NCBI GenBank assembly: GCA_934122115.1
Contig: CAKOVU010000001.1
Span: 215,755-279,754 of the forward strand
DNA from: an uncultured Clostridia bacterium
GTDB taxonomy: Bacteria; Bacillota; Clostridia; TANB77; CAG-508
Length of the DNA: 64,000 nucleotides
Direction of reading: 5' to 3'
Made by a program: the position numbers and the translations under genes. The notes below the pieces were generated by a model, which worked only from the letters and a program-made list of their open reading frames with translations, was not told the DNA's origin and did no database searches. This document shows positions 27,315 to 27,779 of the stretch, piece by piece. The stretch's first letter is position 1, and the number at the start of each line of letters is the position of its first letter.

Positions 27315-27779
27315 ATGTCAAATAAAAATAATTTTTTTAGTATTGAGAACAATTTAGAAAATTTAGAAGAGAATAAAGGATATTTAATTTGGATAAGATG
27401 TGGGGCTTTTTTTGTGGCTATATGTGCTAATGCAGTTATACTATCAAATATATTAGGCCTAAAGAGAATATGCATAAAACAGGGAGTATGTAAAGTTGGA
27501 ATACCAGTAAATTCAATATACGACTATATAAAGAAATTAGAAAGAATAGGGGACAGCTTTGTAATATATAACTATTCAAAAGATGAAATGATTGAAAATG
27601 GTAAGAAATATGCAGAAGCATATAGAAGTAAAGGAAGGTTTGTAGATAAGAGTAGAATAACAATAAATTGTGAAGAATGCCCGAATTACAAAAAAGTTTA
27701 TTATAATGTAAATGTATTTGAAGAATTAAAAAGATTACAAGAATTAAAAGAATCAACTGGAGAAAAAGATGACAAATAA
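27315..27779 (+). CDS. Small protein with a MutS-domain-I-like (mismatch-binding-domain) fold; DGR-associated accessory candidate
   Basis: LIWIRCGAFFVAICANAVILSNILGLK...KVGIPVNSIYDYIKKLERIGDSFVIY aligns with MutS domain I (FYRMGDFYELF..DA...LL.I.LT...PMAGIP...Y...L...G..VAI.EQ) but lacks the Phe-x-Glu glutamate. AGGAGG RBS. Confidence 0.45.
   Translation: MSNKNNFFSIENNLENLEENKGYLIWIRCGAFFVAICANAVILSNILGLKRICIKQGVCKVGIPVNSIYDYIKKLERIGDSFVIYNYSKDEMIENGKKYAEAYRSKGRFVDKSRITINCEECPNYKKVYYNVNVFEELKRLQELKESTGEKDDK

Follow-up and report, generated by a model that had tools for sequence, protein, structure and literature searches.

Diversity-generating retroelements (DGRs) of the canonical BPP-1 type comprise a target gene with a variable repeat (VR), avd, a template repeat (TR) and a reverse transcriptase (RT). 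Wu et al. 2018 (NAR; PMC5758913) divided DGR accessory genes into four classes, of which MSL (MutS-like) is one and defines 'Architecture D'. In that survey MSL was recorded in 16 of 372 DGRs, with a length of 112-283 aa, always with avd and never with HRDC, and MutS_I-like extensions were noted on three DGR RTs. According to a preprint by Macadangdang et al. (bioRxiv 10.1101/2024.11.15.621889), the Bacteroides DGRs Bfr, Bth and Bun encode 'Msl'. A 2026 preprint reported many MutS-like homologues in natural DGRs and used a dominant-negative MutL for that reason. The present analysis concerns a 64,000-nt stretch of DNA from an uncultured Clostridia bacterium (contig CAKOVU010000001.1; hereafter the window, meaning the whole 64-kb stretch that was analysed), in which the gene at 27315-27779 encodes a protein that resembles domain I of MutS. 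This gene is a Clostridial member of the published MSL/Msl family, placed there by its agreement with the published description of the family. The initial annotation of this DNA was not aware of it as a described DGR component; the family was in fact published as MSL in 2018 (PMC5758913) and as Msl in 2024 (bioRxiv 10.1101/2024.11.15.621889). It is highly probable that the gene is an MSL/Msl gene, that it belongs to a DGR and that its cassette is a relic, the three taken jointly. The features of the cassette are listed below.

25876..27075, + strand: DGR target gene, 399 aa, with a type IV pilin-like N-terminus and an FGE-sulfatase/C-type-lectin-like C-terminus ending in the VR (Pfam and homologous targets)
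26929..27066, + strand: VR, A-poor, GC-rich and frozen in the species (composition, comparison with the TR, 7 contigs)
27186..27236, + strand: long conserved hairpin between the VR and MSL, GGTAGGAAACG...CGTTCCTACC (fold z-score, conserved arms)
27237..27270, + strand: two 14-nt units (CCTACCGGACTAGT) with the perfect palindrome GGACTAGTCC, then a T-run; intrinsic-terminator-like (terminator scan)
27315..27779, + strand: MSL, a DGR accessory gene of 154 aa (stand-alone MutS domain I fold; invariant G30, F32, C53, C59, C119 and C122)
27769..28146, + strand: avd, 125 aa, the last ~5 codons altered by a deletion (Pfam, NCBIfam, PHROG, alignment to the related contig L055)
28112..28130, + strand: remnant of the start of the DGR RT (ATG plus ~6 codons) at the left deletion junction (alignment to L055)

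The open reading frame (ORF) at 27315-27779 runs from an ATG start to a TAA stop, with AAGGAGG ahead of the start. The resemblance of its 154-aa product to MutS domain I, proposed at the outset from the letters alone, was upheld by a profile comparison with the MutS N-terminal domain (PF01624). Pfam MutS_I matched residues 18-94 with an E of 3e-5 and a score of 24.6 bits, above the gathering cut-off of 20.6, and a Pfam scan of the 154 aa gave no domain besides MutS_I. A diverse profile built from 42 homologues matched Taq MutS (E 2e-4). In the profile alignment, the family motif G-x-F-[FY]-[IV] pairs with G-D-F-Y-E of Taq MutS, and CKvGiP pairs with MAGIP. Matches in BFVD were likewise of MutS type, among them small phage proteins of 74-153 aa.

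Conservation was assessed in 42 diverse family members, which are 128-172 aa long and share 23-65% identity with the window protein. All 42 of them have G30 and F32, and F32 occupies the Phe position of the Phe-x-Glu motif of MutS. The replacement of the Glu of this motif, first remarked on for the window protein, is true of the whole family: the equivalent column contains I, V, N, T, C, Y, D, L or Q, is V34 in the window protein, and is Glu in 0/42 members. Cysteines C53, C59, C119 and C122 are also invariant in the 42 members, with the spacing C-x5-C...C-x2-C. No Cys stands opposite C53 or C59 in the MutS sequences of the alignment. The four invariant cysteines probably form a structural zinc site. 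The isoelectric point (pI) is 8.64 for the window protein and 8.3 +/- 1.0 for the family, which is at the upper edge of the 7.2 +/- 1.7 published for MSL.

As the initial annotation had it, MSL lies between the VR (26929-27066) upstream and avd (27769-28146) downstream. The start of avd overlaps the end of MSL by 11 nt (27769-27779). The assignment of avd is supported by Pfam bAvd (E 6.5e-16), NCBIfam DivGenRetAVD (E 5e-19) and the PHROG 'Avd protein of DGR' (E 2.7e-19). VR alleles of related loci were aligned, the invariant VR positions were converted into a degenerate pattern, and a metagenome collection was scanned with that pattern. One of the matches, L055, is a 1.9-kb contig that contains the 3' end of avd, an intact 339-aa RT and an A-rich TR (AAGTCTTATTCTAACACGAACAATCCGTACACGAATCGTGGAGGCAATTAC...). 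Window positions 27995-28130 are ~98% identical to L055 through the RT start codon (28112) and ~6 further codons. Past ~28130 identity to L055 is lost and the DNA upstream of ftsK follows instead, indicating that a deletion beginning ~6 codons into RT (~28130) removed RT, the TR and a gene for a protein resembling single-stranded DNA-binding protein (SSB).

A YxDD motif scan and RT and Avd hidden Markov models (HMMs) run on six-frame translations detected no RT in the 64-kb window, and a repeat search and low-stringency blastn with the VR detected no TR or VR repeat. Fragments of MSL, avd or RT in the window amount to the 27315 MSL, its avd, the RT stub and a remnant at 57258, and none beyond these. 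The window VR differs from the L055 TR at 35/56 TR-adenine positions versus 7/94 other positions (Fisher p 5e-13). The window VR was generated by this DGR. The VR is hypervariable among the window, L049, L051, L053, L054 and L056, with flanks ~98% identical. It is 100% identical in 7 same-species contigs from different assemblies, in which the flanks differ by 1-4%; VR variation is confined to comparisons of more distant loci. We conclude from these comparisons that diversification was historically real and has now stopped in this lineage. With the VR frozen in 7 contigs and no RT or TR within 64 kb, the cassette is therefore a relic and not the working DGR cassette that the initial annotation had taken it for. 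The locus should be annotated as a degenerate DGR, rather than as an active diversification system.

The linkage of MSL to DGRs is evident from the relatives. At 50% identity (E<=1e-3) the MSL family falls into 455 clusters; among the best 150 of the 455 clusters, all proteins are small (62-269 aa) and none is a full-length MutS. Linkage was surveyed with one genome per species at 37 loci, nearly all from metagenome-assembled genomes of gut Clostridia, and avd and RT were called with HMMs built from seed sequences. MSL is followed by avd at 31 of the 37 loci, by a DGR RT at 32 and by both at 29. This co-occurrence in other genomes agrees with the proposal that target gene, MutS-I-like gene and avd constitute a conserved module. 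In L002, L003 and L004, which were retrieved by exact-protein look-ups, the order is target-MSL-avd-RT (335 aa), with the TR 3' of RT and the VR at the end of the target, and the VR/TR differences are adenine-specific. In relatives avd overlaps RT. The operon of complete relatives thus reads target(VR), terminator-like hairpin, MSL, avd, RT, TR and a small SSB-like gene.

L055:5-244, - strand; L001:2879-3127; L002:4104-4418; L003:4211-4480; 23 further loci: conserved ~80-aa SSB-like OB-fold gene just 3' of the TR (Pfam SSB)

The SSB-like gene is found 3' of the TR in 27/37 MSL-type DGR loci and also on L055. Pfam SSB matched the L055 copy with an E of 8.6e-8, above the cut-off, and the L002 copy with an E of 1e-6. 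The gene is absent from the window, which is attributed to the RT/TR deletion. No account of a single-stranded DNA-binding protein among DGR accessory genes was found in a literature search. The SSB-like gene looks like a fifth gene of the cassette.

Searches of other collections with MSL were negative. There was no tblastn match to MSL in 50,697 phage genomes, NCBIfam contains no MSL model and gave just a sub-threshold MutS match, and PHROGs contain no MSL family. HRDC is absent from the precomputed Pfam lists of neighbours at the related loci that were fetched, no search aimed at HRDC having been made.

Damage is common among the related loci. The RT gene is split, shortened or interrupted at roughly half of the 37 loci (L048:914-3784; L012, L014, L018, L019, L024-L026 and L047), and the L048 RT carries an insertion of ~1.9 kb. 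The broken MSL-linked RTs may have truly decayed or may be errors of assembly. Fusions of the types MSL(1-62)::Avd and MSL(1-96)::serine-recombinase-remnant are encoded in other assemblies, with N-termini like that of the window, and MSL::RT fusion ORFs also occur. At L005:1439-3700, L007 and L051-L053, MSL residues 1-96 continue in frame into the central part of a large serine recombinase devoid of the catalytic domain, and ~2.2 kb stands in place of window 27617-28125. Two different MSL N-termini carry this same recombinase tail, which occurs in three or more genomic contexts; the fusion proteins of L051 and L053 are identical, and the VRs of these two loci differ. MSL::Avd and MSL::recombinase were considered as functional fusions and rejected, since large parts of both partners are gone, as in deletion products. 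Pilin/FGE targets at L054:9851-10933 and L056:43-1224 have VRs that match the same TR family as the window VR. The L054 target adjoins dnaX and the L056 target adjoins aldolase-like and adhE-like genes, with no MSL, avd or RT nearby. By the match of their VRs, these genes are remote targets of this DGR family.

The Pfam matches of the target at 25876-27075, to N_methyl with an E of 1.2e-3 and to FGE-sulfatase with an E of 1.1e-3, fell under the cut-off, and homologous targets precede MSL in the complete DGRs L002, L003 and L004. The A content is 15% in the last ~145 nt of the gene versus 45% elsewhere in it. The intergenic region between the VR and MSL folds at a z-score of -5.96. The arms of the hairpin at 27186-27236 are kept in L001, L002, L003, L012, L013 and L049, in some with paired changes. 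The terminator scan at 27237-27270 gave a 10-pair stem, a 4-nt loop and TTAATTTTTT. Across relatives the copy number of the 14-nt unit ranges from 1 to ~9 (e.g. L002:1745-1870), and most loci have analogous GC-rich palindromes 5' of MSL, which are GTGGCGCCAC or similar in other clades. The palindromes (GGACTAGTCC, GTGGCGCCAC and others) were considered as a special MSL-binding or cruciform site. This was rejected as the primary reading because a palindrome followed by a T-run fits an intrinsic terminator. An Rfam scan of 26500-28400 returned no family.

Phe36 of E. coli MutS makes a stacking contact with the mismatched base, while Glu38 discriminates mismatches and authorises repair; Glu38 mutants bind DNA yet fail to authorise repair. 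In intact cassettes, adenine-mutagenised complementary DNA (cDNA) paired with the parental VR would form a mismatch-dense heteroduplex. MSL would bind the cDNA:VR heteroduplex through its Phe wedge and, unable to signal MutL, would occlude host MutS. Shielding from MutS-MutL would in turn raise the yield of diversified VRs. The heteroduplex, which the initial annotation had also invoked, is a reasonable idea and is already the working assumption of the field. According to the Bacteroides preprint, most heteroduplex intermediates are reverted by host MutS, all or nothing, with restoration of the parental sequence, and deletion of host mutS increased retrohoming 5- to 10-fold in B. ovatus with the same mutation pattern (bioRxiv 10.1101/2024.11.15.621889). 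Suppression of mismatch repair is also used to boost reconstituted DGRs in E. coli. The SSB-like gene suits the model, as single-stranded cDNA would be coated and annealed, and the heteroduplex would then be protected. A role for MSL as an anti-mismatch-repair shield of the cDNA:VR heteroduplex is offered as a tentative proposal, possible but somewhat doubtful. A more elaborate version, and a fairly unlikely one, is that the element encodes, in MSL and the SSB-like protein, a module by which cDNA is installed. The single-stranded cDNA would be coated by the SSB-like protein, and MSL would act as a decoy that hides A-site mismatches from MutS-MutL, the decoy being MutS domain I minus the repair-authorising Glu plus a Cys4, probably zinc, site. 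If true, MSL would be the first known retroelement-encoded mismatch-repair inhibitor derived from MutS itself. A weaker variant, put forward simply as an idea, is that MSL and avd, retained after the loss of RT, continue to serve an RT-TR that acts in trans.

Several points weigh against a relic cassette with a shielding MSL. MSL and avd are still intact ORFs and are 100% identical on 23 contigs. Relic status was judged on the 64-kb window alone, and an RT-TR may lie elsewhere in the genome. A literature search found no experiment on any MSL protein. Deletion of mutS was without effect in an E. coli insertion-repair reporter, an 18-nt insertion not being a MutS substrate. The two constitutively active DGRs Bov and Bfi are not among the three reported with Msl in the Bacteroides study (bioRxiv 10.1101/2024.11.15.621889), and MSL is therefore not needed for DGR activity generally. 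A lone domain I may bind DNA too weakly, because the MutS dimer clamps DNA with domains I and IV. Finally, the invariant Cys4 motif is without a role in the shielding model. With these points taken into account, the best explanation as a whole, that of an MSL family member in a relic cassette with an inferred shielding function, is considered reasonably probable.

Other functions can be envisaged for MSL. It may be a structure-specific DNA binder that recognizes a hairpin, cruciform or flap near the VR rather than mismatches and directs Avd-RT or cDNA to the VR, or that takes part in cDNA priming. The highly structured VR-MSL spacer (z -5.96) is consistent with such a binder. However, the GC-rich palindrome and T-run are more simply the intrinsic terminator of the target gene, and described DGR cruciforms are 4-34 bp from the VR, as opposed to 120-190 bp here. 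Also, most DGRs work without MSL (PMC5758913). A structure-specific role is considered unlikely. Alternatively, MSL could belong to the Avd-RT-TR RNA particle as a subunit or chaperone, binding RNA:cDNA or TR RNA or affecting RT fidelity or processivity, with the fold serving as a generic nucleic-acid module. The constant company of avd and the MutS_I-like extensions on three DGR RTs, both as described by Wu et al. 2018 (PMC5758913), would fit a particle component, as would the MSL/avd and avd/RT overlaps, which suggest coupled translation and a fixed stoichiometry, and the MSL::Avd and MSL::RT fusion ORFs in other assemblies. The fusions, however, look like deletion products in which large parts of both partners are gone, and an invariant Phe in the place of the mismatch wedge speaks for contact with DNA in the manner of MutS. 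A function within the particle is considered quite unlikely.

The DGR could also be split, such that MSL and avd of the window work with an RT-TR elsewhere in the genome to diversify this VR and remote targets in trans. In favour of a split DGR, the same TR family matches VRs at L054 and L056, which are loci without accessory genes, L051 and L053 share an identical MSL::recombinase fusion and have different VRs, and 23 contigs carry MSL and avd as intact ORFs. Yet the RT ATG and ~6 codons that are still joined to avd are the scar of a deletion rather than the mark of a designed split, 7 assemblies with neighbouring DNA 1-4% different have a 100% identical VR, and MSL is truncated or fused in other strains of the species. 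Such a division of the system is very unlikely. It is hardly credible that the resemblance to MutS arose by chance or from composition and that the ORF encodes an unrelated small protein. The single-sequence Pfam score is modest (24.6 bits), and a narrow family profile (A1), which was set aside, gave only noise-level matches to PDB sequences with calcineurin B on top; the diverse profile A3, in contrast, reached MutS. The preferred reading remains a degenerate DGR that retains an MSL gene of possible shielding function.

The window contains remains of another such cassette, with the following features.

55684..57054, + strand: second paralogue of pilin/FGE type, 456 aa, its C-terminus VR-like and rich in Asn/Tyr (5' end with 84% nt identity to 25866-26107)
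57156..57175, + strand: GC-rich hairpin AGCGCCAC-TAGT-GTGGCGCT, then a T-run (read from the sequence; counterpart of 27237-27270)
57258..57476, + strand: MSL remnant, residues 1 to ~45 homologous to MSL and the remainder unrelated (hmmsearch, hhalign; tRNA operon after)

The initial annotation had recognized here a decayed second copy that shares the first ~45 residues of MSL and follows a paralogous pilin-FGE gene, and the description stands. The ORF at 57258-57476 starts 203 nt past the stop of 55684-57054 and runs into a tRNA-Val/Asp/Phe cluster (57545-57797). Its match to the MSL profile is confined to positions 3-45 (E 6.4e-8 by hmmsearch; a probability of 95.8% and an E of 7.6e-9 by hhalign), and Pfam MutS_I is below the cut-off (E 0.0048). 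The copy is missed by tblastn of MSL against the window and is detected by profile methods only. Its nearest relatives belong to another MSL lineage (P0066, P0119). A recent duplication was ruled out by this closeness to a different lineage. Because it is closest to the P0066/P0119 lineage, the stub is best seen as the remnant of a diverged paralogue. A second cassette, likewise diverged, has left it behind as an older relic. In a three-frame translation of 56700-57070, the C-terminal motif expected of the target at 55684-57054 (..SSYGSRPTLII..; ..SSYGSRPTLIITTGI-stop) is out of frame with the VR-like Asn/Tyr-rich stretch. The second target gene appears to be damaged, with a frameshift near its end (56828-57054).

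The counterpart of the 57156-57175 hairpin in L057 is a 14-nt tandem repeat. L057:281-655 encodes a 124-aa MSL of which the N-terminal half is like the 57258 copy and the C-terminal half has 98% DNA identity to window 27486-27594. The L057 MSL is either a natural recombinant of two MSL paralogues or a chimeric assembly. More paralogues of the targets are encoded at 1624-3318, 3882-5714 and 12854-14143, with a pilin-like N-terminus and central blocks common to both targets; the paralogue at 1624-3318 carries BspA-type leucine-rich repeats instead. A search of the window with the MSL profile found no MSL remnant beside these three paralogues.

The genes around the cassette are chromosomal and of Clostridia type, with spoIIAB, a split sigF, spoIID and an M23 peptidase gene upstream and ftsK directly downstream. 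The sigF-like sporulation sigma gene (22401-23169) is split into overlapping ORFs that encode region 2 (22401-22880) and region 4 (22861-23169). The same split is present in the independent contigs L008-L010, and it is therefore probably a real frameshift and not a sequencing error. A MutS2-type protein is encoded 22 kb off, at 49930-52290 on the - strand, and consists of MutS_V, MutS2/Smr-associated SH3 and Smr with no domain I. It is unrelated to MSL and is the sole other MutS-family gene in the window.

Recent work on the fixation of DGR cDNA in target genes shows that host MutS eliminates most retrohoming events. A MutS-derived accessory protein would be the obvious candidate for a countermeasure built into the element. 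The analysis adds to the earlier accounts of MSL a Clostridial subfamily that is well sampled (455 clusters at 50% identity), residues for mutagenesis (F32, C53, C59, C119 and C122), a consistent five-gene operon that includes the previously unremarked SSB-like gene, and a reconstruction of the deletion. The natural knock-out states, RT-less and MSL-truncated, should help in the choice of experimental systems.

Like published MSL/Msl, the window protein is small (154 aa), is homologous to MutS domain I and is encoded beside avd in a DGR cassette. The subfamily of the window differs from published MSL/Msl in that it is Clostridial, has the order target-MSL-avd-RT-TR-SSB-like and has a somewhat higher pI. 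The invariant Cys-x5-Cys...Cys-x2-Cys and the universal loss of the Glu are absent from the parts of the published descriptions used here, and the window copy is located in a cassette without RT and TR. Compared to MutS/MSH proteins (PF01624), MSL has domain I only and lacks the connector, core, clamp and ATPase (domains II-V). It also lacks the Glu of Phe-x-Glu and has four invariant cysteines in addition. With this predicted architecture, MSL cannot be a mismatch-repair enzyme.

The window shares with the canonical BPP-1-type DGR a C-terminal VR, avd, adenine-specific VR/TR mismatches and structured DNA 3' of the VR. Unlike the BPP-1-type DGR, the window is without RT and TR, and its intact relatives have the TR 3' of RT and the extra MSL and SSB-like genes. 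An analogy can be drawn to engineered suppression of mismatch repair by dominant-negative MutL E32K or by deletion of mutS, in which a block of MutS-MutL leads to more edits templated by mismatched single-stranded DNA or cDNA. Engineered suppression manipulates host genes, whereas MSL would be a MutS-derived blocker encoded by the element.

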